A stretch of 37,577 nucleotides of DNA, from the IMG/VR virus record IMGVR_UViG_2529292717_000013; one strand, 5' to 3'. This document shows, piece by piece, positions 5,808-36,581 of the stretch (positions within the stretch are counted from its first letter, which is position 1; every line of letters starts with the position of its first letter). The position numbers and the translations under genes are program-made. This stretch comes from a virus. Lineage: Duplodnaviria > Heunggongvirae > Uroviricota > Caudoviricetes. The notes under the pieces are model-generated. The model did no database searches, had not been told where the DNA came from, and was given only the letters and a program-made list of their open reading frames with translations.

Positions 5808-5813
5808 ATCACT

Positions 5814-9669: not shown

Positions 9670-9673
9670 ACCA

Positions 9674-9985
9674 ATGACGACACCAACCAGAAGAATAAGT
9701 TTCTATCTGAAGCCAGCTGCCGTCAAGAACGAAGGAGAAGCATGCGCATGGCTGGACAGCCTTACACCAGAAGCCCGCAAAAGCGGCCAACGCGTGGCTT
9801 TTCTGGCCGGGCTGGCACTTCTGAAGACGAATCCGGCAGAGGCTTACCGACTGGCCGCATGGGCTGATGATGAGATGTTACCTGTGACACAAATCAGCTC
9901 AAAAAAGTTTGAAGCACAGTCTGCACCAGTGGCTAAGATAACCAGCCAGATGGCTGGGAATATCCGGGCGTTATTTCCTGGGTAA
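9674..9985 (+). CDS. parR: ParR/StbB-like centromere-binding protein
   Basis: 103 aa; RRISFYLKP...AFLAGLALLKTNP...IRALFP resembles R1 ParR; immediately after parM. Confidence 0.7.
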   Translation: MTTPTRRISFYLKPAAVKNEGEACAWLDSLTPEARKSGQRVAFLAGLALLKTNPAEAYRLAAWADDEMLPVTQISSKKFEAQSAPVAKITSQMAGNIRALFPG

Positions 9986-14516: not shown

Positions 14517-14670
14517 TGCTCCCCCTGAGTAATTACAGGAAGATTACCCGCGCGCGAAACCGTTCTCCTTAACCCCCTGTTCTGGCCGTTTTCTTACAAC
14601 AAAAGCCCTTTGTATCAGCCTGTTACGCTTTGCCATCATGACTGAAGAACCAGTCAGAGGGGCAAAAACT

Positions 14671-19490: not shown

Positions 19491-19942
19491 TTCCCTGCGT
19501 GAAGCCATGACCCGTTCATGCCGATGGTGTCAGGCCAACCCGGAAAAATTCACCATTTTCGTGGAGAGCGGCAACATTGAAACGACCGGAGAAACGCCCT
19601 CGTTTGTTTAACGCTATCAGATGGTGATGTTTGTCATGGATTACGCCGGGGAGCTGGACGACCTCACGCTGCCGCTACTGGCGTGGTTATCCGAAAATCA
19701 GCCACAGTTGTTGCTCAATCCGGAGCGTAATCAGGACATCAAATTCTCCGCCGTTATCAATGACGATGACAGCGCCGATCTCCTGTTTACGCTCCCTCTG
19801 CGGGAACGCGTTCGCATACGCGCACAGTCAGGGGACACCGCAGGCAGAACACCTGCCGGAGCCAAAACCCCGTCTGCCATCTTCCGAAGGCGACTGGTCG
19901 CATGTATTCCAGGATGTGACGTGGGGTGAAAGCGATGGATAA
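19477..19942 (+). pseudogene. R: tail completion protein R; in-frame TAA at 19609-19611 plus a frame change near 19830-19860
   Basis: MLKTDSLR... N-terminus like gpR; the stop aligns with a K/E position of homologues; the C-terminal HLPEPKPRLPSSEG is in another frame. Confidence 0.7.
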
Positions 19943-20570: not shown

Positions 20571-21289
20571 GCGCAGAACTCATGCGACTGCTGAGCAATA
20601 TCATCCGCACCGGGATCATCTCTGAAGTTGATGAGAAGTCCTGGCGCGTGCGCGTTCGCAGCGGCGAACTGGAAACAGGCTGGTTGCGCTGGAACACCAC
20701 GCGCGCGGGAGCCTTCAATGTGTGGCTGCCGCCATCACCAGGCGAACAGGTGGTAATTGCCTGCATTGGCGGCAACCCGGAAACCGCCATGATAATTGGC
20801 AGCCTGTGGAGTGATGCCAGTCCGGCACCCGGCAAAAGCCTGAAAGAAATCGTGATCAGCGCGCCGGACGGCGCGGTGTTCCGCTACGACGCGGACGCAG
20901 GCGCACTGAGCGCCAGCGGCATGAAAACGGCCACTTTACAGGCATCCGTCAGCGTGAAACTGGATACGCCCGTCGTGGAATGCACAAACCTTCTGAGAAC
21001 GGCGACGCTTGACGTCACAAAAGGAGGAAAGATGAGCGGCAATATCACGCACAGCGGCGGCAACTTCACCTCAAACGGCATTACCGTGCATACGCATAAA
21101 CACGGTGGCGTGAAAGGCGGCGCGATTCGACAGGAGGCCCGCAGTGACAACCCGCTACACAGGAATGAATCCGGACGGAACGGGAAACCTGAACGATATG
21201 GAGCACCTGAAACAGTCAGTCAGGGACATCCTGACCACCCCGCTGGCAAGCCGGGTTATGCGACGGGAATATGGCAGCCTTGTGCCTGA
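20567..21289 (+). CDS. V: baseplate assembly protein V (spike); 3' end probably frame-shifted, true stop likely about 21147
   Basis: GNPETAMIIGSLWS and THKHGG motifs; the last ~45 codons of the observed ORF read through the W start and look non-protein-like. Confidence 0.8.
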   Translation: MSAELMRLLSNIIRTGIISEVDEKSWRVRVRSGELETGWLRWNTTRAGAFNVWLPPSPGEQVVIACIGGNPETAMIIGSLWSDASPAPGKSLKEIVISAPDGAVFRYDADAGALSASGMKTATLQASVSVKLDTPVVECTNLLRTATLDVTKGGKMSGNITHSGGNFTSNGITVHTHKHGGVKGGAIRQEARSDNPLHRNESGRNGKPERYGAPETVSQGHPDHPAGKPGYATGIWQPCA

Positions 21290-21493
21290 TTTGATTGACG
21301 AACCCATGAATAACACCACGCGTCTGCAATGCATGAGTGCTGCCGTGATTGCGCTGACACGATGGGAACCCCGCATTGCCCTGGATGCCATCGACGTTGT
21401 CTGGAAAGCGGGAGGCCGCGCCGGGGTGACCTGTCGGGCACTGTCATGCAGACCATGCAGAATGTTGAGTTAACCATCACGCTAAGGGAGTAA
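21144..21493 (+). CDS. W: baseplate protein W (gp25-like); frame change at a G-run near 21435
   Basis: MTTRYTGMNPDG...RVMRREYGS...WEPR typical of gpW; the conserved C-terminus DLSGTVMQTMQNVELTITLRE is in the adjacent frame, ending at 21493. Confidence 0.8.
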
Positions 21494-21496
21494 ATC

Positions 21497-22380
21497 ATGC
21501 CCGCCGTTGACCTTTCACAGTTACCGGACCCCGCCATCATCGCGGAGCCTGACTTTGAGGCAATTCTGGCTGACACAAAGGCCATGATGATTGCGGCTTA
21601 TCCCGCCGAACAGCGTGAAGCCGTTTCCGCCGCGCTGGAGCTGGAATCGGAACCCCTTAACGTTATCGCTCAAACCATGTCGTTTCGTGAAATGCTGTTA
21701 CGCCAGCGGGTTAACGAGGGTGCACGCGCCTGCATGTTAAGCCACAGCGCCGGGACAGACCTGGACAACCTCGCGGGCAATATGAACACAAAGCGCCTGG
21801 TTATCACTCCGGCAACGGATACCACCGACGCGGTGATGGAAGCGACACCTCGCTGAGACTGCGGGCGCAACGGGCGTAGACGGCCTGAGGTTGCTGGCCC
21901 GTCAGGGCATACGAGTATTTTGCCCGCAGCGCCAGCGGTCTGGTGCGTGATGCGCGGGCTATCAGTCCGTCTCCGGCAAATGTGACGGTTTCCATCCTGT
22001 CCACTGAAGGCGACGGCACGCAACGGAGGCGTTGCTTAATACCGTTCGCGCCGTTCTGAATGCAGAGGATACCCGCCCGGTGGCCGACCGCCTGACCGTA
22101 CAGAGTGCCAGAATCGTGACATGGCGGCTGAATGCAAAACTGTACTTTTACCCCGGCCCGGAATCCGAACCTATTCTGGCTGCGGCGGAATCGTCGTTCA
22201 GGAAGTGGCTGGCTGAGCAGGGGCTTATCGGTCAGGACGTGGCGTTGTCGCCATTGCTGCCGCACTGCATGTGCACGGTGTGCAACGCGTGGAGATAATC
22301 GAACCCACACAAATATGGCCATCAGCGACATACAGGCGGCGCGCTGTGAGTCTTCACCATCAGCGAAGGTGGGCGAATGA
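21497..22380 (+). pseudogene. J: baseplate protein J; at least five frame changes
   Basis: gpJ-like segments are found successively in frames 2, 1, 2, 1, 0, 2, 1 (for example MPAVDLSQLPDP..., RAYEYFARSASG..., LNAEDTRPVADRLTVQ..., ALHVHGVQRVE...). Confidence 0.8.
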
Positions 22381-22904
22381 GTAATTCACTGTTACCGCCA
22401 TCAGCCAGCATTTCATGCGTTGTGCCGAAGCTGTCGGAACCGCATTACAGACATCCCGGTAGACCTCAACACCTGTGGTCGCCGGATACCTGCCCGGTGC
22501 ATCTGCTGCCTTATCTCGCCTGGGCATTTTCCGTTGACCGCTGGGATCGCAACTGGCCGGAAGAGACAAAGCGACAGGTGATTCGTGATGCATGGCTGAT
22601 ACACCGACACAAGGGAACCATCAGCGCACTGCGCCGGGCCATTGAACCACTGGGATACCTCATTCGCGTGTCTGAGTGGTGGGAGTTCGGCGGAGAACCG
22701 GGAACATTTACCGTTGAAGTCGGCACGCTGGACAGTGGCGTGACGGAGGAAATGTATCTGGAAATGGAGCGGTTGATTGCTGATGCCCGCCCGGTCAGCC
22801 GCCACATGACAGGGCTGAATATCATTCAGGAGATCCCGGGAGATATTTTCGCGGCGGCAGCAACTTACGACGGCGAAGTCATTACCATTTATCCAGACGA
22901 TTAA
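22377..22904 (+). CDS. I: baseplate/tail-fibre attachment protein I
   Basis: 175 aa; NPDTCP..LLPYLAWAFSVDRWD...GYLI..EWWE pattern like P2 gpI. Confidence 0.85.
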   Translation: MSNSLLPPSASISCVVPKLSEPHYRHPGRPQHLWSPDTCPVHLLPYLAWAFSVDRWDRNWPEETKRQVIRDAWLIHRHKGTISALRRAIEPLGYLIRVSEWWEFGGEPGTFTVEVGTLDSGVTEEMYLEMERLIADARPVSRHMTGLNIIQEIPGDIFAAAATYDGEVITIYPDD

Positions 22905-22906
22905 GT

Positions 22907-25077
22907 ATGAGTACCACAACACGAAAATTTAAAACCGTTATCACCAATACGGGTGCAAAAAAATTAGCTCAGGCAGCCGCGCCAGATGGTAAGCCTGTCC
23001 GCCTGACTCATATGGCCGTGGGCGACGGTGGCGGCACGTTGCCCACACCAGACAGTAAGCAGACCCGTCTGGTGCATGAGGTGTGGCGACACACGTTAAT
23101 CGCGTCATCCTGGACGCAACACATCAGAACCGCATTATTGCGGAGCTGGTTATTCCTCCTGAAACGGGCGGATTCTGGATCCGGGAAATTGGTGTATTTG
23201 ATGAGCACGGCGATTTAATCGCGGTGGGCAATACTGCCGAAAGTTACAAACCAACCGTTGCCGAAGGGTCCGGACGTACACAAACATTTCGCACCATTCT
23301 GACCGTATCCAGCACTGCCACCGTGGCGCTTACCGTGGATAACACCATGGTGATGGCCACAGTGGATTACGTGGATGACAAACTGAAAGAGCATGAACAG
23401 TCACGACGTCACCCGGATGCCTCGCTGACCGCAAAAGGCTTTGTTCAACTCAGTAGCGCCACTAACAGCGATTCTGAAACGCTGGCTGCAACGCCGAAAG
23501 CGGTTAAGGCCGCGTATGACCTGGCTAACGGAAAATATACCGCTCAGGACGCCACGACGGCACGAAAAGGGATAGTCCAGCTCAGCAGTGCAACCAACAG
23601 CACGTCTGAAACGCTGGCAGCGACACCAAAAGCTGTTAAGGCGGTAATGGATGAAACGAACAAGAAAGCGCCCTTAAACAGTCCTGCGCTGACCGGAACA
23701 CCAACAACACCAACTGCGCCAAAAGGTACTAATAATACTCAGATCGCAAGTACGGCTTATGTGATGGCCGCGATTGCCGCCCTTGTAGACTCGTCGCCTG
23801 ACGCACTGAATACGCTGAACGAGTTAGCGGCGGCGCTGGGCAACGACCCGAATTTTGCGACCACCATGACTAACGCGCTTGCGGGTAAGCAACCGAAAGA
23901 TGCCACCCTGACGGCGCTGGCCGGGCTTGCTACTGCGGCAGACAGGTTTCCGTATTTTACGGGGAATGATGTCGCCAGCTTGGCAACCCTGACAAAAGTT
24001 GGGCGGGATATTCTTGCGAAATCGACCGTTGCCGCCGTTATCGAATACCTCGGTTTACAGGAAACGGTAAACAAGGCTGGTAACGCCGTTCAGCGTTCCG
24101 GCGATAAAATGACCGGAGAACTGAAAATTGGCACGATGAATGCGCTGCGAATTTTTAATGATGCCTTCGGTCTTATTTTCCGTCGTTCAGAAGAGTACCT
24201 TCATTTCATCCCTACGGCTGAAGGACAAGGCGAAAACGGTGATATCGGCCCATTAAGGCCATTCGCTATAAATCTGAGAACAGGTGCTATATCTGTCAGC
24301 CACGGGGCCAAAATTGATGGTGGGCTGGCGCTTGGTACAGATAACGCACTGGGCGGTAATTCCATTACTCTCGGAGATAACGACACTGGTATTAAACAGG
24401 GCGGCGACGGTGTCCTTTTATTCTATTCAAATGGACAACTGGCATTTGGGCTTCAACCCGCATCTGCTGATTTTTATAAGCGGGTTGCATATATTCATCA
24501 GGGAATAATTCCTGATGGAAGTGGCGCATTTGCAGACCAGTTGAATAATGCCACCGCGCCTTTTGTTCAGACGCAGTTTGCCTGGAATCCCACTCCTGGT
24601 GGTCATTACGTGCCGATAGTTAAGGGCTTGTCCATTCGCAATGGACAGGGCTATCCCGGCGCGGTCAGCTTTGGGTATTTACTGACAGAACAGTATGGAT
24701 TTCCGGTTCCATGTATTCATATGCGTGGCGATGGCGGTAATGATGCTTTATGGCAGTTTAACCCGAACGATAAATCCTTTATTTCACCGGGTGCTCTTAT
24801 TGCGGGTGGCGTCCATTATAACACCGATGGAAATATATTTGGTGGGTGCTGGGGTTCAAACTTAAATGATTACCTGAATAGTTCTTTTATCAGAAATGTG
24901 CGTCTGGGAGGCAGACGTTCTGACGTATTATATCGCGGAGGACTTTGCGAACCAGGTAATGGTCATGTGACAACAGGATTGCAAATTATTGGTGAGGTTG
25001 ATGGAGATGACTGGATGGTGTCACGACCACTACAAAAATACATTTATGGTAACTGGTATAACGTTGAACAGGCATAG
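22907..25077 (+). CDS. H: tail fibre protein H; one frame change near 23097 separates the N-terminal about 60 codons
   Basis: N-terminus MSTTTRKFKTVITNTGAKKLA...HEVWRH then IIAELVIPPE in the next frame; two copies of the tail-fibre repeat SSATNS(D/T)SETLAATPKAVKA. Confidence 0.85.
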
Positions 25078-25092
25078 CCATCAGGAGAATAT

Positions 25093-25620
25093 ATGCAACA
25101 TCTGAAAAATATTACCGCCGGAAACCCCAAAACCATTGAGCAGTATCAGCTTACGAAAAAAGCTGGCGTTATCTGGCTATATACAGAAGACGGTAAAAAC
25201 TGGTATGACGAATTAAAAAACTTTCAGGATGATACTTTAAAAATAGCTTATGACCAGAAGGGGATTATTCGTTGTATTGAGAAAGACGTATCAATGCTTA
25301 ACCCTGACGGGTTAAGTGTTGTTGAGTTACCGAATATAACAGCCAACCGTCGCGCCGATATCTCGGGAAACTGGAAGTTTCTGGATGGTAAAGTAGTAAA
25401 GCGGGAATATACAAAACAGGAACTGCAACAGCAGGCAGAGTTACAAAAAGCCGCTTTGCTTTCCGAAGCGGAGTCTGTGATTCAACCGCTGGAACGTGCT
25501 GTCAGACTGAATATGGCAACTGATGAGGAACGCACACGACTGGAATCATGGGAACGCTACAGCGTTATGGTCAGCCGTGTGGATACTGCAAAGCCTGAAT
25601 GGCCACAGAAACCAAAATAA
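25093..25620 (+). CDS. G: tail fibre assembly protein (Tfa, gpG-like)
   Basis: 175 aa; C-terminal [29 protein letters not shown] pattern of Tfa proteins. Confidence 0.8.
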
Positions 25621-25631
25621 CAACAAATTAA

Positions 25632-25652
25632 GGCCCGTACGGGCCTTTTCTT
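25632..25652 (+). terminator. rho-independent terminator (GGCCCG-TA-CGGGCC + T-run)
   Basis: Directly after the tfa stop. Confidence 0.6.
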
Positions 25653-25683
25653 ATTCTGGTGGTTCCGGGAATGTTACAGGAAG

Positions 25684-25839
25684 AACCAAATAGCAAGGCT
25701 GATCAAAAACGGTCATGACAGGAAACAACTGGCGATCATTTACGACATCGGCATATCGACGATTTATCGTTATCACCCTGTAGGCGATATACAGGCTGAA
25801 GAAACAACCAGGCAGACTCAGGAAAATGAAAACCGCTAA
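25684..25839 (+). pseudogene. C-terminal remnant (about 50 codons) of a Hin/Gin/Cin-type serine DNA invertase
   Basis: Translation NQIARLIKNGHDRKQLAIIYDIGISTIYRYHPV matches the C-terminal HTH of Hin (EQISRLLEKGHPRQQLAIIFGIGVSTLYRYFPA, recalled); no N-terminal catalytic domain upstream. Confidence 0.6.
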
Positions 25840-25858
25840 TCTGACCATTAGCGGTTTT
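25831..25858. terminator. bidirectional terminator (AACCGCTAAT ... ATTAGCGGTT + T-run)
   Basis: Perfect 10-bp stem after the stop of minus-strand U. Confidence 0.5.
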
Positions 25859-25865
25859 GCGTTAA

Positions 25866-26360
25866 TCAAAACAGCCCTTTAACGGAGCTGGCCGCGCTGT
25901 TAAGGGATGATGTGACCTTATCTTTGAAGCCGGACAGCATATCACTGAACGATGAGGATTGCAGGCGCTCCCGCAAATCCTCATCACAGCGTTCAAGGGT
26001 CAGTGAAAATTCTATCTTTTTCGCCTTACCGTAGCGATCAAACTCGGAGCGGGTCGTATTCGTTTCAGTCAGTACATACATGCCGTAAATCTGCCCGACA
26101 CCATCAATCAGAGGCCAGGGGCGTCCTGTATATGCCTGCGTGGTCAGCAACGAAAGCGACACTTCGCCACCTGTAATTTCAGGATAAAGCACACCAGAAA
26201 GAACGATGCGATCATCACCTGCACCGATATACTGCCAGCTTGCTGAACGGTTAACGCGTTCATTTTTCACATGCCGCCAGCTTTTGTTTTGCTGTAACTG
26301 CTGATGCGGCAGCGTGCGCAGCTCAAAAACAAACATGCCGTAGATCATCATCATGACCAT
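25866..26360 (-). CDS. U: tail protein U
   Basis: 164 aa; FVFELRTLPHQ...WRHV...G.PWPLIDG pattern of P2 gpU. Confidence 0.85.
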   Translation of the reverse strand: MVMMMIYGMFVFELRTLPHQQLQQNKSWRHVKNERVNRSASWQYIGAGDDRIVLSGVLYPEITGGEVSLSLLTTQAYTGRPWPLIDGVGQIYGMYVLTETNTTRSEFDRYGKAKKIEFSLTLERCDEDLRERLQSSSFSDMLSGFKDKVTSSLNSAASSVKGLF

Positions 26361-26366
26361 GACTCC

Positions 26367-29201
26367 TCAATCTTTATCGTAAAAACTGCCACGCCCGGCA
26401 CGGGCGCGCCGTTCCATTTCTGCCCTGACCATTTCACCGACCAGTTTCGCCAGTTCGCGGGGATTCTGTGTAACAACGTTATGCAGATGAACATGAATTT
26501 CACCGCCAAATCCGGAGGCAACAGGCTCCCGGTTACGGGAAGTTGCAGGAACTGATGCCACTGGAGATCGTATGGCCTCTGCCACCGGGCGGGAGCTGGC
26601 CGCAACAACAGGGACCAGCGCCGGAGGCAGCGGAGCCGGAACCACGGGTGTGATATTAATTGCGGGGGCAGGCTTACTGACCTGCGCAATCTTCCGCTCC
26701 TGCCACTCCCCACGAACGGCAAGTGCGCGGGGCAGGTTCTTAAAGACAATATCGCCGGGGCCAATACGTTTTTTCGTCTCATCAACCAGCTTACCTGTGT
26801 TATCAGCAATTTTGCTGAGTCTGCGTAGCGTACCGGTATTGCTGTCTGTGAGTGGTTTGTTGTCTTTGGGTTTATCACCTCCGGTGCCATTGCCATTTTC
26901 CACAGGCTTCGGCGGATTGATTTTCGCCAGGTCTCCCTGAAACAGAGCAACCTTGTCCTGAAGAATGGCCGCACGCTGTGCGTCTTCGATTTTCTTGCTC
27001 GCCCTTTCAGCTTCATCCGGAAGGACGCCAAGTTTTTCAAGTATCCACGCCAGCGTATCCAGTAGCATTTTTGCAGGTGTCAGAACAAGCTGTAACGCAC
27101 CGCCAAGAACGTTACCGAATATCTCGCCAGCACTGGTACATTTATCCAGCGTTTCCTTGCTGGACTCCATCGGTGACAGCAGCGATTTAAACCAGTTAAA
27201 CACCTGACTTATCCCGCTTCCGATTGCGTCAAAAACAGGACCAAACCGTTCAAAGGTTTCGCGTAACGGGGCCAGCCGCTCCATAATCCCGCTGAACACC
27301 CCGGCATAAAACGCCTTGATGGGTTCCCAGTATTTCCAGATGAGAACCGCCGCAGCCACAAACGCAGCAGCAATCAATCCGACCGGGCTGAACAGCGCCC
27401 CGATAGCGCCCCCCAGTAACGAAACGGAACCCGTCACCATTCCCCATAGTGCTGGCAGGAGCCTGACAGCATTCATTGATCCGGTCAGGAGAGAAAAACC
27501 AAGACGCAACGTGGCCAGCTTCCCGTGAAGCACTCCAATAACCAGCGACAACGAGCCAACCGTTGCAGTCATTGCCAGCAGCGCACCGCCTGCTATCAGT
27601 AACTGGCGCGTCAGTACCGGATGGGCCTGTGCCAGCGCCGTCACCTTTGAGACCACCCGCGTGAGCCACTGCGTGACAGAACGCAGCGGACCATCAATCA
27701 GATCTGCAATGCGGATACGCAGCCCTTCCCATGCACTGCCGAGTGATTTCAGGTCGCCATCAAGGTTATTGGCCATAACCTTTGCCGTGCGTTCAGCCTC
27801 ACCGCGTGCGCCCTCAAGTTCTTTTCTCAGTTTGGGCAGGGAGCCGTCACCCGCCGCATCAACGAGAGCCATAAACGACGTGAAAGCCTCTTCCCCGGCA
27901 ATGTCCTTAAAGAACGATACCCGGTCAACTTCCCCGTATTTGCGGGTGGCTTTATAAAGGTCAGCCAGCAGATCTTCCATCGGGCGCATTTTGCCGTTCG
28001 CATCAGAGACGGACACACCCAGCTCTTTCAGCGCCTCTGCTGCTGCCTTTGGCGGTGATGCCAGACGAGCCAGGCTGGCACGCATTGCCGTCCCGGCATC
28101 ACTCCCTCTGATACCCATATTCGCCAGCACGCCGCCATCGCTGCGCCTGCTCCAGCGATATTCCCAGCTTACCCGCCACCGGACCGCATATTTCATGGTT
28201 TCGCCCAGTGCGCGAAGGTCAGTGTTGGTACGGGTAAACGCTGCAGTGAGTGTGTCACCGACCCGGTCCATCTGGTCAGCGAAGGCCGAACTGCGTCAGG
28301 ATATTTGAGCCAATATCGCCGTCTCGCCAGTCCATACCGCCAGCCGTTGCCATGCTCACACGCCGGGAAGCGCAGCCTGAATGGCCTGCGGTGTGAAGCC
28401 AGCCATTGCCAGAAATGCCTGCCCACTGGCGGCATCGCCTGCGGTGAACTGCGTTTCAGAGCCAAGTTTTAACGCCTGCTCACGCAGCGCCTTAAACTGC
28501 GGGCTGTTTTTGTCGATTCGCGTCAGTGCCTGAACGCGGGACATCTCTTTCCCGAACCCGATCGCAGGCTGCAAAAAACGCCCGGCAGCATAGCTGCCAG
28601 CCGCTGTCGCACCAATTGCCAGCGCACCACCTGTTTTCAGTTTTCCCGCTGTTTCCTGCGCACGCGAATACCGCTCACGCGCCCGCGTTACACGCGCAAG
28701 CGACTGCCGTTCGCGTTCAAGCTGGTTGTTGTACTGCTCGGTGCGTCTGATGGCCTGCTGGATGGTGTTATCGCTGCCTGTCAGGGAAATGCCGTGGCGT
28801 TTCAGCTCTCCGCCAAGCTCCCGCATTTTCTGAATTTCCCGTGTGCGCGATTCATTCAGGCGTTCAAGCCGGGTGCTTAACTGCTGCATCAGCTTTTGTT
28901 GCTTTTCGCTGAGCACTGTACCCGTGCGTTGTAACTGATTAAGGGCGTTAAGCTGGCGTCGTGCTTTCACGATACCCGCATCCGCTTTACTGACAGCGTC
29001 GCGGGCGCGCTCAAATGAACGCGCCTGACGCTCGAGATTTTTGATCGCCCCCTGCGTTCGCTGGATGGAGTCACCAAACTGCCCCATCAGGCGGCGGGCG
29101 TTTTCGGCAGGCCGGGTCAGCCTGTCAACGGCGCTGAAAGCGACCCGGATATCAAGAGTCTTCATTGTCTGCATTCCCGCTGCGAAGTGCCGCCCGCTCA
29201 C
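26367..29201 (-). pseudogene. T: tail tape-measure protein T; compensating pair of frame changes at about 28285-28355
   Basis: Track ORFs 28356..29201 and 26367..28271 are in the same frame; the conserved segment between them (VSMATAGGMDWRDGDIGSNILTQFGL) is in another frame. Confidence 0.85.
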
Positions 29202-29681
29202 GCCAGCTAACCACTTCGCCGGGCGTCATCATGAAGATTTCGGCGGGCGACCAGTTAAAAATAACGGCAATATCTGCCACAAAGTCTTCTATGTGCTCAA
29301 AGCACACAACCGTGATCAGGCTTCCGTCGCCTGTTCGTTCTTCCCGCCAGAGTCCGCACCGCTCAAAAAATTTACGGCAACCACACATAACTGAATAAAG
29401 TCACGGGATGCCATTTTTTTGATCGTCACTTCATCCAGTCGCGGTGATGTCACGCGTGACAGCAGCGTAAACATGGATTCCGCTTTCAGATTCAGCACAT
29501 CAGACAACGACAAATCTCGCAGAGATCCAGCCTGCTCAATAGCTCCGGTGATCTCCACATACGTGATTTTTTCGCCGCCTCGCTCAATTGGTTGGGTAAG
29601 TTTTACGCCACGCTCACTGGTTTCTTTCACAGTGTCAGCAACGACCGTGTTTTCGGTATCGATGTTTTTCGTCTCTTTCAT
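29152..29681 (-). CDS. E+E': E+E' tail assembly chaperone produced by programmed -1 frameshift
   Basis: The E' frame (track ORF 29152..29388) is -1 relative to E and continues as FFERCGLWREER...WRERAALRSG after the heptamer T TTT TTG. Confidence 0.65.
29316..29681 (-). CDS. E: tail assembly chaperone E
   Basis: 121-aa ORF between T and FII; contains the slippery site near its 3' end. Confidence 0.75.
   Translation of the reverse strand: MKETKNIDTENTVVADTVKETSERGVKLTQPIERGGEKITYVEITGAIEQAGSLRDLSLSDVLNLKAESMFTLLSRVTSPRLDEVTIKKMASRDFIQLCVVAVNFLSGADSGGKNEQATEA
29364..29370 (-). promoter_or_regulatory. programmed -1 ribosomal frameshift slippery heptamer T_TTT_TTG (E to E')
   Basis: Coordinates derived from the E and E' codon phases; X_XXY_YYZ pattern in the E frame. 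Confidence 0.6.
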
Positions 29682-29735
29682 CAGGAAACTCCTTTCAGTC
29701 AGAGGCGACGCACTGCGCCGCCTGCATATTACTTA

Positions 29736-30248
29736 TCAGCCAAGCCCAAGCGCGGAACGGATGCGATCGGGCACAATGTCCTTGCCGTCCTTCCGGTAAA
29801 TGAAGTTCAGCAGGTCAATCTCCCACAACGGACGATCGTTAACACTCAGCTTGTAGTAGGTGTTTTTAATGGCGTAAGTGTGTGATGTGGCTTCGCCCTG
29901 TTTGGCTTCCCCCATATCAATTTCTGTCACACGTCCGCGCATTTCGACTTCATACAGGTCGCTTTCTGCATCGGTGTAGTATTCACCCGCAAAACGCAGC
30001 AGCGTGCCGTCAATCGTGCCGCCATACTTCAGGAACAGCTCACGAACTGCGCCCCCCATGACAAAGCTCGCATCAAGCGCGGAGTCGTCCAGACCGAGAT
30101 CAATACTTACCGCACCCATCATGCCACCACCCCGGTAGCTGTCGGTTTTGCGCGTCAGCTTAGGCAGAGTGACGGACGTCACCTTACCCACTTCGTTTTC
30201 ACCATCCACAAACAGCGTAAAAAAGCGAAGATGTTTTGGCACAGCCAT
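29736..30248 (-). CDS. FII: tail tube protein FII
   Basis: 170 aa; MAVPKHLRFFTLFVDGENEVG...YRGGGMMGAVSIDLGLDD like P2 FII. Confidence 0.85.
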   Translation of the reverse strand: MAVPKHLRFFTLFVDGENEVGKVTSVTLPKLTRKTDSYRGGGMMGAVSIDLGLDDSALDASFVMGGAVRELFLKYGGTIDGTLLRFAGEYYTDAESDLYEVEMRGRVTEIDMGEAKQGEATSHTYAIKNTYYKLSVNDRPLWEIDLLNFIYRKDGKDIVPDRIRSALGLG

Positions 30249-31429
30249 CAGGCACCTCCCAGCACCGCAAATGCAGGTTCAAAGTATTCATCAGTAAACG
30301 TCTGGTAAAGCTCCATGTCTTCCAGTGGCGGAACAGGCGTATATTTGTAGCGAATACGCACACGCCCCTGACGTAAATCCGTGGTGCTGTTATCCACCAC
30401 GTCATACCAGCACTCCGCGCCAATCAGTTTCCCGGCAGTAACCAGTGAATCCAGTTTTGCCCTGATGGCACTGATAACATCCTTCACGTTCGCAGGCGTC
30501 AGTGGACTGTCGATGGTTTCAAACTGCGCTTCTGCAATTGAATCAGCCAGCACCTGTGCGGTTCGGGTATACACCTCAAAGATGTAGGCGTTCGTTTCCG
30601 GTGTGCGGTTGCCCCAGAAGCGGAACCCGTTGCGACGAATAATGGTCGTGATTTCTTTGTTGTTGAGGCTGTTGGCATCGCTGTCTTCGGCCTGCAACGA
30701 CCAGAACACATGCCTCGACATCCCCAGCACATTTTTAACCGGAACGTTGGACAGCGATTTGTGCCAGCCCTGCTCATGGTCAATGTACGCACGAAGGCCG
30801 CACGCATAAGCAGGCGCGGGGAACGTTTCGTTTTCGCCACTTTTCGGGTTGTAGGCGATGAAGTCCGGCCATAAGAGCATCACCTCACGTTCGTTGAATT
30901 TCTGGCGGTAGGTAATCGCTTCAGCCATCGTGTTACAGCCGTGACATGAGGCATACACAAATGCGCGCAGTTTACCCGCAATCACGCACAGGGATTTTGT
31001 CACCGCCTCCGTGTCCAGCTCCGGCGCGGCCAGAATACGCGGACGGTATCCGATGCTTTCATCCTGCTCTGCAACAAGCAGCGCATACATCCCCGTATAG
31101 CTGCCGTCATCCTCAGAACCACCGATAACCAGTTGATCCTGCGTTTTCGTCTTCTTCTTTGTGTTCAGCCACGCGAACGACGATCACCTTTGTGCTCACC
31201 TGGTCTGCGATGGCCTTAAGCGCACGATAAAGCGTCCCCGTTGTCCGCATTTTCCCAGCACGTCATTGACGCGGGTCAGCAGTGTGGGCTTGTTCAGCGG
31301 GAACAGCTTCGCGTCCGCATCATCCGCCGTTGCCACGATACCGATAACGCTGGAATCAACATCGTTAATCGCTGTTACCAGGTCGGTATTTTCCGTAACA
31401 CGGGCACCATGAAAACGAGTTTCACTCAT
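30248..31429 (-). pseudogene. FI: tail sheath protein FI; compensating pair of frame changes at about 31140-31245
   Basis: Track ORFs 31196..31429 and 30248..31090 are in the same frame; the conserved middle segment (TLYRALKAIADQVSTKVIVVRVAEHKEEDENA) is in another frame. Confidence 0.85.
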
Positions 31430-31585
31430 AGCTTCAGCCCCTTGTATCCGTTAAATGATTCGGCAACAATCATCACCCACCACGCGCGTAATCTCACCCC
31501 TGCGCCGTTCTCCCGCCACGGCGACAACAAAAAGCAGTACCCCCCTCCGCACGCACATGCGACCATGCCGCACAGGGAGGGAAAG

Positions 31586-32689
31586 ATGACCGACACCACC
31601 ATGCAATTGCTCAGTCAGGGCACAGACCCCGTGAAAATGCCGGATTTTGATATTCTCGCCGAGGGTAAAACGCTGTCCGGCGTGGCAGAACGCCTGATGA
31701 GCCTGTCACTGACCGACAACCGGGGATTTGAGGCGGACCAGCTCACCATCACGCTGGATGATGCCGATGGCCAGTTGCAGCTACCGCCACGGGGCGCGCG
31801 TCTGACGGTTCTCATTGGCTGGAAAGGAGAACCGCTGACAGAAAAAGGCACTTACATTGTTGATGAAATCGCTCACGAAGGACCGCCGGACAGGCTGACT
31901 GTTTCAGCCAGAAGCGCAGATTTTCGGGATGAATTTAACGTTAAACGTGAGGTGTCCTGGCATGATGTGACCGTTGAGCGTGTGGTATCCGCCATCGCTC
32001 ATCGGTACGGTCTGAAACCGCAAATCAGCGAAATGCTGATGGATATCGAAATCGACCACGCCGACCAGACCGAAGAAAGCGACATGTCCTTCTTACGCGC
32101 ATGGCGGAAATGCTGGGCGCAATCACCACGGTAAAAAGCGGAATCTGTTATTCATATGCCGGCGGTGGCGTGAACGCACAGGGCCAGCCGTTGCCATCGT
32201 TCGCCATCACCGCAGCAGGGCGATCGCCATCAGTTCCGCATTGCTGACCGCGAAGCGTATACGGGGGTACGCGCTTACTGGCTTGATCTTAATTACGGGA
32301 AAAAGAAAAAAGTCAGCGTGAAACGCCGCAAACCGCCAAAACCCAAAAAGGAGAAAAGCAGCAGCCGTGAAGGTGATTATATGGAAGGCGCGGAAGGAAA
32401 TGTGTTTGTGTTACGCAAGACTTATCAGAACGAGCAGGCAGCAAGACGCGCAGCGGCGGCAAAGTGGCAGCAGCTACAACGCGGAGCCGCATCATTCTCC
32501 ATCACACTGGCACGTGGACGAGCAGAACTCTACCCCGAAATGCATGGCACGGTAACAGGATTTAAAAGCGAGATTGATAATCAGGACTGGATTATTGCAA
32601 AAGCCGGGCACACCATTGATAACAGCGGCTTTACCACGCAGCTTGAGCTTGAGGCAAAAATCCCGGAATGGATAGCGGAAACAGAGTGA
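31586..32689 (+). pseudogene. D: tail protein D (late control gene D family); compensating pair of frame changes at about 32095-32225
   Basis: Start at the ATG after a GGGAGGG RBS (MTDTTMQLLSQG...); conserved segments in frames 2, 1, 2; C-terminal part is track ORF 32318..32689. Confidence 0.8.
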
Positions 32690-32731
32690 GCAACTTAGAA
32701 TAGCGGCAGCACCACGTTAAGGGAGGTCGCT

Positions 32732-32992
32732 ATGTTCCGTTGTCCGCTTTGTGGCGCATCTGCCCGTATCCGCACCAGTCGTCCGGAAAATGATTCAAAC
32801 ACCGTGCGGCAAAAGTATTACCAGTGTAACAACCTGGAATGCGGCATAAGTTTCTCAACACTGGAAGCTTTCCATAAATTCACATCGAAACACGCCTCCG
32901 GCGTTCACTCATCAGAAGGTATCCCGTGGCATGAGCTGCCAGCTTCACACAGGGGAAACAATCAGATGAGTTTGCCTTTATCTCAGAATTAA
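32732..32992 (+). CDS. ogr: Ogr/Delta-type zinc-finger late transcription activator
   Basis: 86 aa; MFRCPLCGASARIRTSR...YYQCNNLECGISFSTLEAF matches the Ogr C-x2-C...C-x4-C pattern. Confidence 0.85.
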   Translation: MFRCPLCGASARIRTSRPENDSNTVRQKYYQCNNLECGISFSTLEAFHKFTSKHASGVHSSEGIPWHELPASHRGNNQMSLPLSQN

Positions 32993-33182
32993 CAGGCAGA
33001 ATTGCCGGAGTAACAAAAAAGCGATAGATTACGCGCGGGTGCCTTTCGGCTGATGGTCGGAGGGAATACCCGAAGGCCAGATGTGGAAAGGCCCCGGAAA
33101 ACATTTCTGTTTAACCGAGGCCCTAACCGTCTAACCTTAGCAAGTGATAGGTTAGCGCCTCCCTGAAAAAGGAGCAAGCGCT

Positions 33183-33323
33183 ATGTCGCAAAAATCGCTT
33201 ACGGCCATCACGTTCTGCGTGACGGCAATCCTCATCATCTGGATGCTGCACGGTTCGCTGTGCGAAATACGGATGAGCTTCTGGGGAGCGGAGTTTGCGG
33301 CGTTCTTACAGTGTAAGCAGTAA
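33183..33323 (+). CDS. hok: Hok/Gef-family type I toxin (small membrane protein)
   Basis: 46 aa (below the track cutoff): MSQKSLTAITFCVTAILIIWMLHGSLCEIRMSFWGAEFAAFLQCKQ, with N-terminal TM and SLCEIR / AAFL motifs as in Hok proteins. Confidence 0.7.
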   Translation: MSQKSLTAITFCVTAILIIWMLHGSLCEIRMSFWGAEFAAFLQCKQ

Positions 33324-33385
33324 GGAAACCGCGACGGGGGAGCAATCCCCCGTCAATCGGTTGCCAGGGTAAGGTCGATAAGGCA

Positions 33386-33396
33386 CCCTATCTCAC
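33386..33396. repeat. left copy of the 11-bp direct repeat CCCTATCTCAC (putative target-site duplication)
   Basis: Abuts the left inverted repeat; identical copy at 34896-34906. Confidence 0.5.
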
Positions 33397-33510
33397 CAAT
33401 GCCGTTCAGTTAGTTAAGGAATTGAGGTTCGATAGCCCGAACCTCGCGCAGAGGCAATATGACCGAAAGCCTGATTCCTTAATGCCCAAGATGAGTCTCT
33501 ATTCATAAAA
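33397..33510. repeat. left terminal inverted repeat of the cassette
   Basis: CAATGCCGTTCAGTTA...ATGAGTCTCTATTCATA; internally folds as TTAAGGAAT...[GAGGTTCG-ATAGCC-CGAACCTC]...ATTCCTTAA. Confidence 0.6.
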
Positions 33511-33732
33511 GCGCTTAACTACTCGACATTGGCGGTGTATCCCCCGCATTGTCTGAATGCCGCCTCTTACCTTTCGCGGTCAACTGACGACTTCTAGTTC
33601 TAGAACGCCTTGATTTTTTGTACTTGTACATTGAAAAATAACCATAAATTGTTAGCCTGTGCAGTAGACTCAGTGGCGGTAACTGGTCAGCATGAAGTGT
33701 AAAGTGAATAACGAAGCTCTAAAATTATAGGG

Positions 33733-34566
33733 ATGGTCATGAATAATAAGCTAAAGGTAATTGAGTTAAATAGTCTTGATCTGTTTCGTAAAGAATTACT
33801 AACTACTATAAAGCCAGAGAAAGTAGAGAAATTACTTAGATGGTATCTTCAATCATATGGCGGTGTTAATTTCAAGTTCGGTTATGACAGACCAATTTTT
33901 AGAGCGCGAAAGTGCCCAAATGAATGCGGATATAATAACATCAGTGAGATATATCCCCCTCCACCAGAAAAATGTAAAATAGGCCGAATGAATGATGATG
34001 GACAAGCTATCTTCTATGGCGCTTATAGTATCGGAACAGCTTTAGCCGAAATTAATGCAAAAGAAGGGGATTATGTTCACATAGCTCACTTTAAGATGCC
34101 GGAAAATTCAGAGTCTGGAATGCGATGTTTTGCTATCGGTGAGGTCTTTAATGTGTATCACGGTGTAAATACAATTTCAATTGAAGTGTTTAATGAAATT
34201 CGCGACATCATTAGCAGAATTGGTAAGGACGACATCCGAGCTTTGCTATCATATTTGTATATGGATGCCCTTTCTGCTGAGTTGCTTAATAGTATCAATG
34301 CCCATGAGGTAAATTATATTTACTCAAGAATTTTTTGCCGTCTTCTTCTTGATAAATACCCTGATGTTGATGGCCTTATTTATCCTAGCGCTAAAATAAA
34401 AGGGGCCTCAAATATCGCTTTGCGCACAGAAACAGTTAAATCGAGAATGCATTTAGTTGCTAATCTTGTGTTTAAAGTAAATAAAATTTATCCATATGGA
34501 ATAGTAGATTTCAGTATAGTAAAACAAGCCAAAGGACATACATCAGATGGGCGCATCGTTTGGTGA
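33733..34566 (+). CDS. RES-domain protein (putative NAD+-targeting toxin-like effector), solo
   Basis: 277 aa, AT-rich; GRMNDDGQAIFYGAYSIGTALAE and DGLIYPSAKIKGASNIALRT resemble the R...E...S motifs of RES domains (recalled). No adjacent Xre-type partner. Confidence 0.5.
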   Translation: MVMNNKLKVIELNSLDLFRKELLTTIKPEKVEKLLRWYLQSYGGVNFKFGYDRPIFRARKCPNECGYNNISEIYPPPPEKCKIGRMNDDGQAIFYGAYSIGTALAEINAKEGDYVHIAHFKMPENSESGMRCFAIGEVFNVYHGVNTISIEVFNEIRDIISRIGKDDIRALLSYLYMDALSAELLNSINAHEVNYIYSRIFCRLLLDKYPDVDGLIYPSAKIKGASNIALRTETVKSRMHLVANLVFKVNKIYPYGIVDFSIVKQAKGHTSDGRIVW

Positions 34567-34726
34567 GCCAAACTTTTAGTTAGCTGATTGAAAAACCGAT
34601 GCGTCAGTTTGCACTGCATGTGGTGTATGGGAAGCGCGGGCTTGTAGTGCAGGTCATTTCAGAAGAAGCTAACGAGAAAGCTTAGACATACTGTGACTAC
34701 TAAACAAGCAGAAAGCCCGTGTTTAT

Positions 34727-34746
34727 GGGGGGGAGGGGGGGGGGGG
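34727..34746. repeat. homopolymeric tract G7-A-G12
   Basis: Read directly; lies inside the cassette just internal to the right inverted repeat. Confidence 0.7.
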
Positions 34747-34785
34747 CAATCCCCACAACAGGCGATGTCGATTAGTTAATACACT

Positions 34786-34895
34786 TGTATGAATAGAGAC
34801 TCATTTTTGTGCATTAAGGAATCAGGCTTTCAGTCATCTTGCCTCTGCGCGAGGTTCGGGCTATCGAACCTCAATTCCTTAACTGAACTACATTG
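34786..34895. repeat. right terminal inverted repeat of the cassette
   Basis: Reverse complement aligns to the left repeat with a few mismatches and one 4-bp indel. Confidence 0.6.
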
Positions 34896-34906
34896 CCCTA
34901 TCTCAC
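34896..34906. repeat. right copy of the 11-bp direct repeat CCCTATCTCAC
   Basis: Abuts the right inverted repeat. Confidence 0.5.
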
Positions 34907-35093
34907 AGCTCTAAATGCAAAAATCCCATGAAACTGTGGGTATTTCATCACACACTGACACTGCTCTACCTTTCTATATGTATCACTCTAAACCAGTTAA
35001 TCAATTGGCACTTATCAACAACAAAAAATCTGATAAAATCAAAATGTTTTGTAACAAATTTCAGCTTGTAGTGTTCCAAAGGAGACGGATTAC

Positions 35094-35426
35094 ATGGCAT
35101 TAATCAAATGTCCTGAATGCCAGAAAGAGGTCAGCGATTCAGCATTATGTTGCCCTGCTTGTGGTAAACAACTGAAAAAACTTAAGCGTTCATTTTTTGG
35201 AAAACTCATTAAATGGGCTTTTATATTTTTTAATATTTTTATGATCTATACACTTTTAGTTGGACTAGGAGGCGCTGATGAAATAATAAACAATACCACA
35301 TCCGATGCCGAAAAAGCTGGGGCAGTTATTGGTACGGGCTTAGGTTTAATTGCCATTGGAGGCTTATGGGTTATTGGCGATATCATTATCGGAATTTTAG
35401 TATTTCTTACTAAACCAAAGGGATAA
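35094..35426 (+). CDS. zinc-ribbon membrane protein (N-terminal CPxC...CPxC, two TM helices)
   Basis: 110 aa; MALIKCPECQKEVSDSALCCPACGK then hydrophobic segments; AT-rich. Confidence 0.55.
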   Translation: MALIKCPECQKEVSDSALCCPACGKQLKKLKRSFFGKLIKWAFIFFNIFMIYTLLVGLGGADEIINNTTSDAEKAGAVIGTGLGLIAIGGLWVIGDIIIGILVFLTKPKG

Positions 35427-35430
35427 TAAA

Positions 35431-36324
35431 ATGAAAAATATGATTTTTTCTATAGGTGCATTATTTATATCAATTAGTGTACTGCCTGTTCACGCAGCAA
35501 CTGAACATAAGAATTTCAATGCAGTGCTCCAGTGCCGAGCGATAGAAAACAATAAAGACAGACTTTCTTGTTACGATAAGTCAATACAACCGACTCGAAC
35601 GAAAGTTGCTGACAAATTTGAAAGCAGGGATCAATGCCCTGATGAGAAAGATGATGACAAACGTTTATCTTGTTATGATCGTTTTTTTTCTCCAACATTT
35701 ACTCCATCTGTAAACTCAAAATCTAAAACGGAAAAGCTAGTAACAACAGAGGCTCAGCAACCAAATCTTTCTGAAATATCTAAATGCCGAGCAGAAAATG
35801 ATAAAGAAACCAGACTAAACTGCTACGATAAACTATTCCCACAGGATGAAGCTGTTCAATCTGAATCACAATTAGAGAAAGCCACAGATGCAGGAAAATG
35901 GCACACGTCCATTACTACATCGCCAATTGATGATTCGAAAAATGTAATTTTATCGTTAGAAAGTGATGATTATATCAGAACTCCATTTGGAGAAGCTGTT
36001 ACTCCCACTCTGTTTATAGCTTGCCGAGAAAAGAAAACCGAAGTATTTCTTAGTTGGGATGTATATTTAGGCCTTGAACAAACCAGCATGCTGTATCGTC
36101 TTGATAAACAGAAAGCAGTTGAAAGAAACTGGCTAATATCTACAGATACAAAGGCTGTTTTTTATAAAGGTAATGATATTGATTTCATAAGAAAACTTGC
36201 CAACTCACATAAAATGTACACAAAAATAACCCCCTATAATGAAAGCCCTGTAAGTGCAACTTTCAATTTAAGCGGCCTGTCAAATGCACTAAAACCGCTT
36301 CAAGATGCTTGTAACTGGAAATAG
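35431..36324 (+). CDS. secreted protein with three RL(S/N)CYD(K/R) repeats
   Basis: 297 aa; signal peptide MKNMIFSIGALFISISVLPVHAA; repeats DRLSCYDK, KRLSCYDR, TRLNCYDK; AT-rich; 4-bp gap to the upstream gene. Confidence 0.55.
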   Translation: MKNMIFSIGALFISISVLPVHAATEHKNFNAVLQCRAIENNKDRLSCYDKSIQPTRTKVADKFESRDQCPDEKDDDKRLSCYDRFFSPTFTPSVNSKSKTEKLVTTEAQQPNLSEISKCRAENDKETRLNCYDKLFPQDEAVQSESQLEKATDAGKWHTSITTSPIDDSKNVILSLESDDYIRTPFGEAVTPTLFIACREKKTEVFLSWDVYLGLEQTSMLYRLDKQKAVERNWLISTDTKAVFYKGNDIDFIRKLANSHKMYTKITPYNESPVSATFNLSGLSNALKPLQDACNWK

Positions 36325-36342
36325 TATATACCTCCCCAATAT

Positions 36343-36385
36343 CAGATGACAAAACGCCCGTGAAAACGGGCGTTTTGTCATCTGT
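36343..36385. terminator. long perfect hairpin (19-bp stem, GAAA loop), probable bidirectional terminator
   Basis: CAGATGACAAAACGCCCGT-GAAA-ACGGGCGTTTTGTCATCTG. Confidence 0.5.
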
Positions 36386-36581
36386 AACTCGAAAATGTGG
36401 TCATTGCGTGGACATACGATGATATAAATCCTTTTATATCAAAAGATTAAACCACTATTATTTTCCTCAACAAGGATTTTCACGTTTGTGTTACCTGTAT
36501 GAGACGAGAGTTAACCGGACAAGTGTGCCATAATCTCGCGGCCAGGCATACTTGCGAAGATTTCAGGTATAAGGATACGTA

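Follow-up and report, generated by a model that had tools for sequence, protein, structure and literature searches.

Tail gene order in P2 and its relatives

In the record of phage P2 the genes FI, FII, E, E', T, U and D form a single rightward operon, the F operon, read from the promoter pF. Two other P2 late promoters, pP and pO, lie back to back and drive packaging and head genes; one activator site (3057-3087 of the P2 record) is placed between the pP start at 3016 and the pO start at 3127, about 55 bp from each. The consensus of the late-promoter activator site is TGT-N12-ACA (PMC3931495). The P2 gene order is kept in phage Cartapus, in a Klebsiella Gegavirus, in Pseudomonas phage Dobby and in Ralstonia phage RsoM1USA. 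Cartapus (Elveevirus), whose D product is 52% identical to that of the locus described here, is the nearest comparator with canonical order that has been found. It carries H, tfa, tfa', H' and a Gin-like invertase gene (76% identity to the invertase of P88) directly before the tail-shaft block, and in it FI-FII-E-T-U-D-ogr are all on one strand, as in P2.

A different layout is visible in annotated public genomes, for example in those of P88 and SEN4/5, and is in this sense already known. In the annotation of P88 (Xuanwuvirus P88, NC_026014) the plus strand carries H, tfa and, past a minus-strand run of U, T, E', E, FII and FI, also D. PhiSM, P884B11 and PhiR44_2 have the same strand layout, and so have the Salmonella phage SEN5 and its companion SEN4 (Senquatrovirus). 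Both P88 and PhiSM are viable and form plaques (PMC5285337, PMC6456863). The inversion is not discussed in the P88, PhiSM and SEN4/5 papers.

Gene map of a P88-type prophage

The DNA analyzed here, referred to as the window, is the whole 37,577 nucleotide stretch of IMG/VR record IMGVR_UViG_2529292717_000013. It is a P88-type prophage of E. coli, in the genus Xuanwuvirus of the family Peduoviridae, and its insertion site adjoins flk. Most of the prophage is covered by collinear matches to P88 with identities of 92-98%, and differences are confined to the tail-fibre tip and to some accessory genes. Genes were placed by tblastn with P88 and P2 proteins and by Pfam, and hairpins by a terminator scan (Table 1).

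Table 1. Features of the tail-gene region, in window coordinates. Promoter elements and start sites are predictions.
Feature	Position	Strand	Evidence or remarks
H, tail fibre	22907-25077	+	tblastn with P88 gp39 and P2 H
tfa, tail fibre assembly (P2 G homologue)	25093-25620	+	Pfam Caudo_TAP, E = 8.8e-35; 74% identity to P2 G
Terminator-like hairpin closing H-tfa operon	25630-25647	+	7-bp stem then T run, 10 nt past tfa stop
Invertase remnant	25684-25833	+	tblastn to P88 invertase residues 149-183; Pfam HTH_7, E = 3.4e-9
Terminator-like hairpin closing FI-to-U operon	25829-25858	-	12-bp stem then T run, 8 nt past U stop
U, tail gene	25866-26360	-	Pfam Phage_P2_GpU, E = 5.5e-39; 99% identity to P88 gp44, 46% to P2 U
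T, tape measure	26367-29165	-	tblastn over P88 gp45 residues 1-935; Pfam PhageMin_Tail on P88 orthologue
E', tail chaperone	29155-29307	-	tblastn with P88 gp46
E, tail chaperone	29316-29681	-	tblastn with P88 gp47; 32% identity to P2 E
P2-type -1 slip site T_TTT_TTG	29370 to 29364	-	heptamer in correct phase of E frame
FII, tail tube	29736-30248	-	Pfam Phage_tube, E = 7.5e-47; 100% identity to P88 gp48
FI, tail sheath	30248-31429	-	tblastn over P88 gp49 residues 1-394; sheath Pfam domains on P88 orthologue
FI-D spacer	31430-31585		156 bp
Predicted pF -10, GATGAT	31469-31474	-	predicted start site near 31462
Dyad-symmetric Ogr-type site, TCT-N12-ACA	31509-31526		centre 31517.5; one mismatch to TGT-N12-ACA
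Predicted pD extended -10, TGc GACCAT	31558-31566	+	predicted start site near 31573
D, baseplate hub / late control	31586-32689	+	tblastn with P88 gp51 and P2 D; Pfam Phage_GPD on P88 orthologue
ogr-type late activator	32732-32992	+	Pfam Ogr_Delta on product of 32732-32989, E = 8.7e-16; 42% identity to P2 Ogr

H, which comes last among the large genes of the rightward baseplate/fibre operon, carries a frameshift near 23095. The tail-shaft block follows in the opposite orientation. P2 proteins match it by tblastn at 31-47% identity, in P2 internal order and all on the minus strand. The P2-type slip site is kept as well and, as the E' frame runs on to 29155, an E+E' product made by -1 frameshifting is predicted from the sequence. 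D lies on the strand opposite to U and 5.2 kb away from it, an arrangement incompatible with the P2-style co-transcription of D downstream of U. D is followed by ogr, as in P2, and the ogr product features a Cys4 zinc finger (CX2C-X24-CX4C). The tail-shaft operon is a variant of the P2 F operon arrangement, in which FI-to-U are opposite in strand to D and to the other tail genes. An earlier note, made from the letters of this DNA, had described FI-FII-E-T-U as inverted relative to P2 and D as separated from U and starting 156 bp from FI; tblastn and Pfam placements bear out both statements. A 72-aa ORF at 25651-25869 on the minus strand overlaps the invertase remnant and the terminators, and was judged spurious.

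Spread of the inverted layout

Positions 25687-33394 of the window align to P88 as one collinear match, at 96.3% identity, which spans the block and both its junctions; PhiSM, P884B11 and PhiR44_2 also align over both junctions in single collinear pieces. Positions 25099-33388 have a single collinear match in E. coli strain 4238 too; in its complete genome the same layout is annotated, every gene of the locus is intact, and the same invertase fragment is called a pseudogene by PGAP. About a fifth of complete E. coli genomes (1,102-1,110 of 5,426) contain the region or the FI-D junction in one piece.

The same order is found well beyond E. coli. All the informative loci in Enterobacterales genomes, defined as those holding both genes, are inverted (43/43, D identity 65-99%, about 25 genera), and so are all the loci found in IMG/VR viral contigs (80/80, with D 61-99% identical). 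The opposite orientation was found at none of these 123 loci with D at least 61% identical. The alignment scan of viral contigs returned only relatives with D at or above this value, and the boundary with canonical phages is bracketed by annotated phage records. SEN5, in which the layout is inverted, and SEN4 have D 62-64% identical to that of the window. The earlier note implied an unusual rearrangement of this genome, or possibly a misassembly. It is instead the normal, inherited layout of the P88-like lineage, as the sequence comparisons indicate, and neither a recent event nor an artefact. Because the inversion is shared by all close relatives, while more distant ones keep the P2 order, it is judged from these sequences to be old, derived and fixed.

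An inherited layout that is standard in a very common group of enterobacterial prophages has little value as a discovery. It is of use as a caution, in that the label 'P2-like' does not imply P2 gene order, and the annotation of prophages and checks for misassembly need P88, not P2, as reference.

The FI-D spacer

The early suggestion that the divergent FI-D spacer would need promoter activity both ways fits with the finding of conserved signals for both directions. The search for exact TGT-N12-ACA sequences, proposed in the same note, gave five matches in the window and none in the spacer, below chance expectation; what the spacer contains is the TCT-N12-ACA variant, which is an exact TGT-N12-ACA in many relatives, SEN4 and SEN5 among them. 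When one mismatch is allowed, 163 matches are found in the window against about 172 expected. The motif by itself is uninformative, and the comparative footprint alone made the site credible.

This footprint comes from 107 distinct FI-D spacers, for which D starts were set by a windowed in-frame search. The activator site is found at a fixed offset in all (107/107); it is exact in 45, has one mismatch in 59 and two in 3, and the triplets are conserved while the N12 stretch varies. In 40 non-redundant relatives anchored on the site, conserved positions are A(-11), T(-7) and G(-14) on the pF side, and TG(-15/-14), A(-11) and T(-7) on the pD side. The two -10 hexamers both end 48.5 bp from the dyad centre and are mirror images, which predicts starts for which the site is at about -55.5. 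This geometry resembles that of P2 pP/pO, where one dyad-symmetric site is similarly about 55 bp from two back-to-back starts (predicted ones in the window), and the P-O spacer of the window has the same motif and the same design. The P2 pair drives packaging and head genes, whereas the pair in the FI-D spacer would drive the tail-shaft genes and D-ogr.

Conservation of these signals and the analogy with P2 suggest that one Ogr-type site is probably common to both divergent promoters, and that the FI-D spacer most likely drives FI-to-U leftward and D-ogr rightward. Ogr bound at the site, which lies some 55 bp upstream of each of two divergent extended -10 promoters, would activate together the sheath/tube/tape-measure operon and the D-ogr operon, as in P2 pP/pO. 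This would give four late transcription units. Two of them would diverge from the P-O spacer (P-Q to the left, O-to-tfa to the right) and two from the 156-bp FI-D spacer (FI-to-U to the left, D-ogr to the right), while the tfa and U ends converge, each with a terminator of its own.

Alternatively, the layout may be standard but D-ogr be driven independently of the shared site, by a separate constitutive or early promoter, or by just a promoter of ogr's own; the conserved right-hand elements would then have another role. The -10 hexamers of the window are weak, the D-side one included, and the predicted D leader is short (about 13 nt only). A sigma-70-like match is found inside D, upstream of ogr (32552-32581), and P2 ogr is shown with its own promoter in the P2 record. 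D, however, encodes an essential structural protein, which has to be produced late. Furthermore, the 40 non-redundant spacers conserve TG, A(-11) and T(-7) at a distance mirroring that of pF, and the same geometry serves two promoters in P2 pP/pO and in the P-O spacer of the window. We regard independent expression of D-ogr as unlikely, at odds of about one in five.

A shared site also suggests how D may have come to be expressed after the inversion. The rearrangement may have brought the symmetric Ogr site of pF beside a D gene left promoterless, and the site may have been co-opted for a second, rightward promoter; we lean towards this scenario. If it is true, these phages have gained another bidirectional late promoter resembling pP/pO, and ogr, as part of D-ogr, is in a direct, Ogr-dependent positive feedback. 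They would also provide a natural case of a symmetric activator site making the inversion of a large operon tolerable. No published description or mapping of the FI-D promoter pair has been found. The interest of the spacer is modest, and lies in its resemblance to a second bidirectional Ogr-dependent promoter and in its being a simple, testable case of operon inversion accommodated by a symmetric activator site.

Origin of the inversion

The reading preferred here is that of a standard, inherited layout, derived from an old inversion in place and accommodated by a FI-D spacer working like P2 pP/pO. We assign to it a probability of roughly 0.85. The FI-FII-E/E'-T-U block would have been inverted in place long ago, bringing along its late promoter pF, through breaks immediately upstream of pF and between the U and D genes. 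The clade affected would include the P88 lineage and a wide surrounding group of enterobacterial P2-like phages. U and D align over their full length with canonical homologues, and comparison with canonical phages shows that the pF site, which in P2 also lies upstream of FI, moves together with FI. Proteins of the block are 45-50% identical to those of canonical relatives, a divergence about equal to that of D, I and J.

The block might have been replaced rather than inverted, if an ancestor took up by illegitimate recombination a foreign FI-to-U cassette, in reverse and equipped with its own promoter. Phage genomes are mosaic, and the tail fibre end of this very prophage has been swapped in from a Mu-like phage. 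Yet FI, FII and U have diverged from canonical relatives as much as their neighbours D, I and J, the breakpoints fall exactly at a gene boundary leaving U and D still full length, and among 526 phage records none pointed to a donor lineage whose FI-to-U genes are closer. Replacement of the module is, on these grounds, improbable.

The invertase remnant and the tail-fibre switch

The earlier note had placed an invertase remnant at one inversion junction. Of the 195 residues of the P88 invertase only the C-terminal HTH_7 domain survives in the window, and the catalytic resolvase domain is deleted. The loss is part of a larger one. P88 positions 25449-27423 are missing from the window. The invertible tfa'/H' segment of P88 is gone, and so are the initial three quarters of the invertase gene. 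The fibre tip and tfa of the window also differ from those of P88, being Mu-like. The Mu-like Yersinia phage vB_YpM_3 matches window positions 24500-25687, which include the C-terminal part of H, at 99.4% identity, the fibre tip and tfa corresponding to the S/U genes of the Mu-like phage. A possible gix-like half-site noticed at 25668-25690 was discarded, the stretch being the 3' end of a Mu-like U' gene that continues the vB_YpM_3 match.

These features recall the G segment of phage Mu and its Gin switch, as the fragment belongs to the Gin/Hin family. In the window the switch is dead, alternative fibre genes and catalytic domain having both been deleted, and the Gin-type switch never included the FI-to-U block. 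An intact invertase gene is found at the same place in P88, where the block is inverted, and in Cartapus, where it is canonical, while inverted SEN5 has none, and neither SEN4 nor SEN5 carries an invertible fibre segment between tfa and U. The fragment is the leftover of a tail-fibre switch unrelated to the inversion of the block, and is not to be taken as the cause of the rearrangement.

That the adjacent serine invertase inverted the block, recently or in a programmed way, with the block as invertible segment and the fragment as junction mark, is accordingly very improbable, even though the fragment does sit at the U-side junction and intact invertases are found there in P88 and other relatives. 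No inverted repeats with one arm near 25620-25870 and the other near 31430-31585 were found in the window, nor at the equivalent places in P88, and beside the segment the window has no intact invertase gene. No locus out of 123 with D above 60% identity has the block in the other orientation, and the matches from about 1,100 E. coli genomes all run the same way. D would be promoterless in the other orientation only if pD were nonexistent, yet the pD signals are conserved. The invertase keeps its orientation and its place in canonical Cartapus, flanking the H'/tfa' invertible fibre segment, and many inverted loci besides that of SEN5 are devoid of it.

Damage private to this copy

That the block was misoriented during assembly is a negligible prospect, for although the window shows signs of poor quality, with about 41 private 1-2 bp deletions, both junctions lie within single collinear alignments to the independent P88, PhiR44_2, PhiSM and P884B11 sequences, and recur in loci of many genera and in some 1,100 complete genomes of E. 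coli.

The private deletions are scattered in clusters along the window. By translation, two in-frame stop codons are found in each of FI, T and D, which the earlier note does not mention; they arise from 1-2 bp deletions found in no relative, and other genes are broken too. The stretches concerned are 28134-28359 in T, 31144-31245 in FI and 32092-32219 in D. If the sequence is accurate, the operon yields no functional tail in this copy.

Gene order in the window and in P88

Throughout its prophage part, the window is collinear with and 92-98% identical to Escherichia phage P88 (Xuanwuvirus, Peduoviridae); it belongs to the P88-like phages. Genes were positioned by tblastn with P88 and P2 proteins and by Pfam scans. 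Tail proteins are 31-47% identical to their P2 counterparts (tblastn), the P2-type slip site for E+E', T_TTT_TTG, is found in the correct phase on the minus strand (29370 to 29364), and a gene encoding a zinc-finger protein of the Ogr/Delta type lies 3' of D. In the P2 reference record FI, FII, E, E', T, U and D form a single rightward operon from the pF promoter. Relative to P2, the window therefore has its FI-to-U block in reverse orientation and D detached from U, as the earlier note had read it, and exactly 156 bp (31430-31585) separate the starts of FI and D. The tail-shaft genes are standard for the P2 type, but the co-transcription of D after U seen in P2 is lacking.

Window residues 25687-33394 correspond to P88 27424-35138 in one unbroken match (96.3% identity) covering the U-side junction, the full block, the FI-D spacer, D and ogr. 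P88 is annotated with the same layout, H and tfa (+), U, T, E', E, FII and FI (-), D (+), and carries between tfa and U alternative tfa' and H' genes (-) followed by an invertase gene (+).

Coordinates of genes, predicted signals and small deletions in the window
Feature	Position	Strand	Remark
H	22907-25077	+	tblastn/Pfam
tfa	25093-25620	+	tblastn/Pfam
U	25866-26360	-	tblastn/Pfam
T	26367-29165	-	tblastn/Pfam
E'	29155-29307	-	tblastn/Pfam
E	29316-29681	-	tblastn/Pfam
FII	29736-30248	-	tblastn/Pfam
FI	30248-31429	-	tblastn/Pfam
D	31586-32689	+	tblastn/Pfam
ogr	32732-32992	+	tblastn/Pfam
Terminator-like hairpin after tfa	25630-25647	+	convergent junction
Terminator-like hairpin after U	25858-25829	-	12-bp stem, convergent junction
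Predicted Ogr-type site	31509-31526	dyad	centre 31517.5; TCTCCCGCCACGGCGACA
pF -10, GATGAT	31474 to 31469	-	predicted start ~31462, 55.5 bp from dyad centre
pD -10, TGc-GACCAT	31558-31566	+	predicted start ~31573, 55.5 bp from dyad centre
Deletions (1)	5502-7254, 16945-17201, 19818-19825, 21122-22473, 23095		vs P88/strain 4238
Deletions (2)	28134-28359, 31144-31245, 31584, 32092-32219		vs P88/strain 4238

Distribution of the inverted layout

At least 80% of window 24500-33200 was found in one collinear place in 1,102 of 5,426 complete E. coli genomes, and the FI-spacer-D junction (31000-32400) is unbroken in 1,110 of them. The complete genome of E. coli strain 4238 aligns to window 25099-33388 as one piece; its annotation reports the same order and the same truncated HTH pseudogene, with T, FI and D intact. 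When the P88 D protein was compared to one genome per species, 47 loci were identified. All 43 that have both FI and D are organized as J+ I+ H+ ... U- T- E- FII- FI- D+ ogr+, with D 65-99% identical. The hosts belong to Salmonella, Serratia, Symbiopectobacterium, Edwardsiella, Erwinia, Pantoea, Kosakonia, Klebsiella, Raoultella, Brenneria, Pectobacterium, Rouxiella, Citrobacter, Enterobacter, Kluyvera, Yokenella and other genera. The block is similarly inverted at 80/80 IMG/VR loci (D 61-99% identical) and in Salmonella phage SEN5 (Senquatrovirus; D 62-64% identical). The inverted layout is thus the standard of the lineage, the outcome named beforehand as refuting the earlier reading, and is not peculiar to this genome. 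P88 and PhiSM can be induced and form plaques (PMC5285337, PMC6456863), so the layout is functional. It is real but ordinary, and already present in annotated public genomes. The P88, PhiSM and SEN4/5 papers pass over it without comment.

Origin of the inversion

Among annotated phage records, the canonical P2 order is kept where D is about 52% identical or less, as in Escherichia phage Cartapus (Elveevirus), a Klebsiella Gegavirus, P2, Pseudomonas phage Dobby and Ralstonia phage RsoM1USA. The P2 order is accordingly ancestral, and the inversion derived in one large enterobacterial clade. Cartapus features H, tfa, tfa', H' and invertase, and after these FI-FII-E-T-U-D-ogr on a single strand; the orientation of FI-to-U is the sole difference from P88 in this arrangement. 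U and D align over their full length to canonical homologues, which places one breakpoint at the U/D boundary. A TGT-N12-ACA motif is found 5' of FI in the canonical Cartapus, Gegavirus and P2 and likewise in P88 and SEN5, so that the other breakpoint falls upstream of pF. Import of a foreign module would be the alternative to inversion in place. FI, FII and U are 45-50% identical to those of canonical relatives, a divergence similar to that of D, I and J, which favours inversion in place.

The invertase remnant

An invertase remnant had been noted at one junction. The fragment is there, but belongs to a tail-fibre switch and not to the inversion of the block. Residues 25684-25833 (+) encode only the HTH_7 domain of a serine invertase, about residues 149-183 of 195 (tblastn, Pfam). 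P88 25449-27423, comprising tfa', H' and the 5' three quarters of the invertase gene, is absent from the window. Window 24500-25687, which includes the C-terminal part of H, tfa and the next 67 bp, is 99.4% identical to the S/U region within the invertible segment of the Mu-like Yersinia phage vB_YpM_3; the same junction is also present in E. coli strain 4238. The fibre switch is frozen by loss of the alternative fibre genes and of most of the invertase, and the remnant is a relic of that switch. An intact invertase is found at the equivalent position in P88 (inverted) and Cartapus (canonical), and none in SEN5 and many other inverted-layout loci. Inverted repeats with one arm per junction were found in neither the window nor P88, and the opposite block orientation occurs in none of the relatives with D at least 61% identical. 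The remnant as a scar of block inversion is rejected, its position being shared with canonical Cartapus, the invertase being absent from SEN5, and bracketing repeats being missing; all three marks of an invertase-driven invertible segment (intact invertase, flanking inverted repeats, both orientations among close relatives) are lacking.

The divergent FI-D spacer

TGT-N12-ACA is the consensus of the four Ogr-dependent late promoters (PMC3931495). The search for it proposed earlier found no exact copy in the FI-D spacer, and the motif by itself hits the window no better than chance. T(G/C)T-N12-ACA occurs at a fixed place in 107/107 distinct FI-D spacers (exactly in 45, with one mismatch in 59 and with two in 3). 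Its centre is 78.5-88.5 nt away from the start codon of FI and 62.5-83.5 nt away from that of D, and 12 variable nt separate the conserved triplets. In 40 non-redundant spacers anchored on this dyad site, the top-conserved flanking positions on both sides are G(-14), A(-11) and T(-7) of an extended -10 element, with exactly 48.5 bp between the dyad centre and the end of each -10 hexamer. The P2 record places a single activator site (3057-3087) between the start sites 3016 and 3127 of the divergent promoters pP/pO, and the FI-D spacer, with its predicted start sites, resembles this pair in every sequence-testable feature. The conserved site, the mirrored -10 elements, the P2 precedent and the presence of ogr together suggest, with a probability of about 0.6-0.65, that one shared Ogr-type site drives both transcription units. 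Ogr bound at the single dyad would direct leftward transcription of FI-to-U and rightward transcription of D-ogr. This putative second bidirectional Ogr-dependent promoter is the sole mildly new element.

The P-O spacer (14517-14670) is a second divergent late-promoter region, with TCT-N12-ACA at 14581-14598 and -10 elements TAATCT (14546 to 14541, -) and TGc-CATCAT (~14631-14639, +) about 48-49 bp from the dyad centre, reproducing the FI-D geometry within 1 bp. The listed ORF start 14638 probably lies inside a -10 element; in the P88 annotation the scaffold gene starts at the equivalent of 14671. CGCGCGC-rich runs are found directly 5' of the extended -10 on the D side (31548-31557), where most relatives also have one, and, in the window, beside the leftward P promoter (14547-14555).

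Condition of this copy

Translation of FI, T and D reveals two in-frame stop codons per gene, caused by deletions of 1-2 bp. About 41 such deletions were counted versus both P88 and E. coli strain 4238. They also hit M, R, V/W, J, I, H and A, shifting the frame in M, R, J, I, H and A. Those tested occur in no complete E. coli genome; for 31000-32400, the closest E. coli genome shows 98.6% identity and has 10 nt more than the window. The contexts are non-homopolymer, the deletions are clustered without excess substitutions, and within one gene they often total a multiple of three. They may be either sequencing errors or decay; if real, the prophage would be incapable of building tails.

Additional features

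Compared to P88, the Lys/Pro-rich linker of D has a 9-bp in-frame insertion (CCAAAACCC, 32336-32344), which resembles natural variation in length rather than an error. The 3' part of D contains a sigma-70-like promoter match, GTAACA-18-GATAAT (32552-32581), about 150 bp upstream of ogr; a consensus match only, it could be the counterpart of the separate ogr promoter of P2. A small Hok/Gef-family toxin ORF is found 3' of ogr (33184-33324), which the P88 and E. coli strain 4238 annotations call MokW-like or Hok/Gef. The early region (8710-9985), judging from its collinearity with P88 gp17-gp18, hosts ParM-like and partition-protein genes, an unusual cargo for an integrating P2-like phage.

The right end (33300-37577) is E. 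coli chromosome adjoining flk (99.4% identity). The window starts exactly at the integrase stop codon and ends exactly at the flk stop codon. Between prophage end and flk lies low-GC DNA (35-45% GC; 33700-36324 and 36582-37577), annotated in near-identical E. coli genomes as encoding a RES-family NAD+ phosphorylase, a zinc-ribbon protein and a TagO-like protein.
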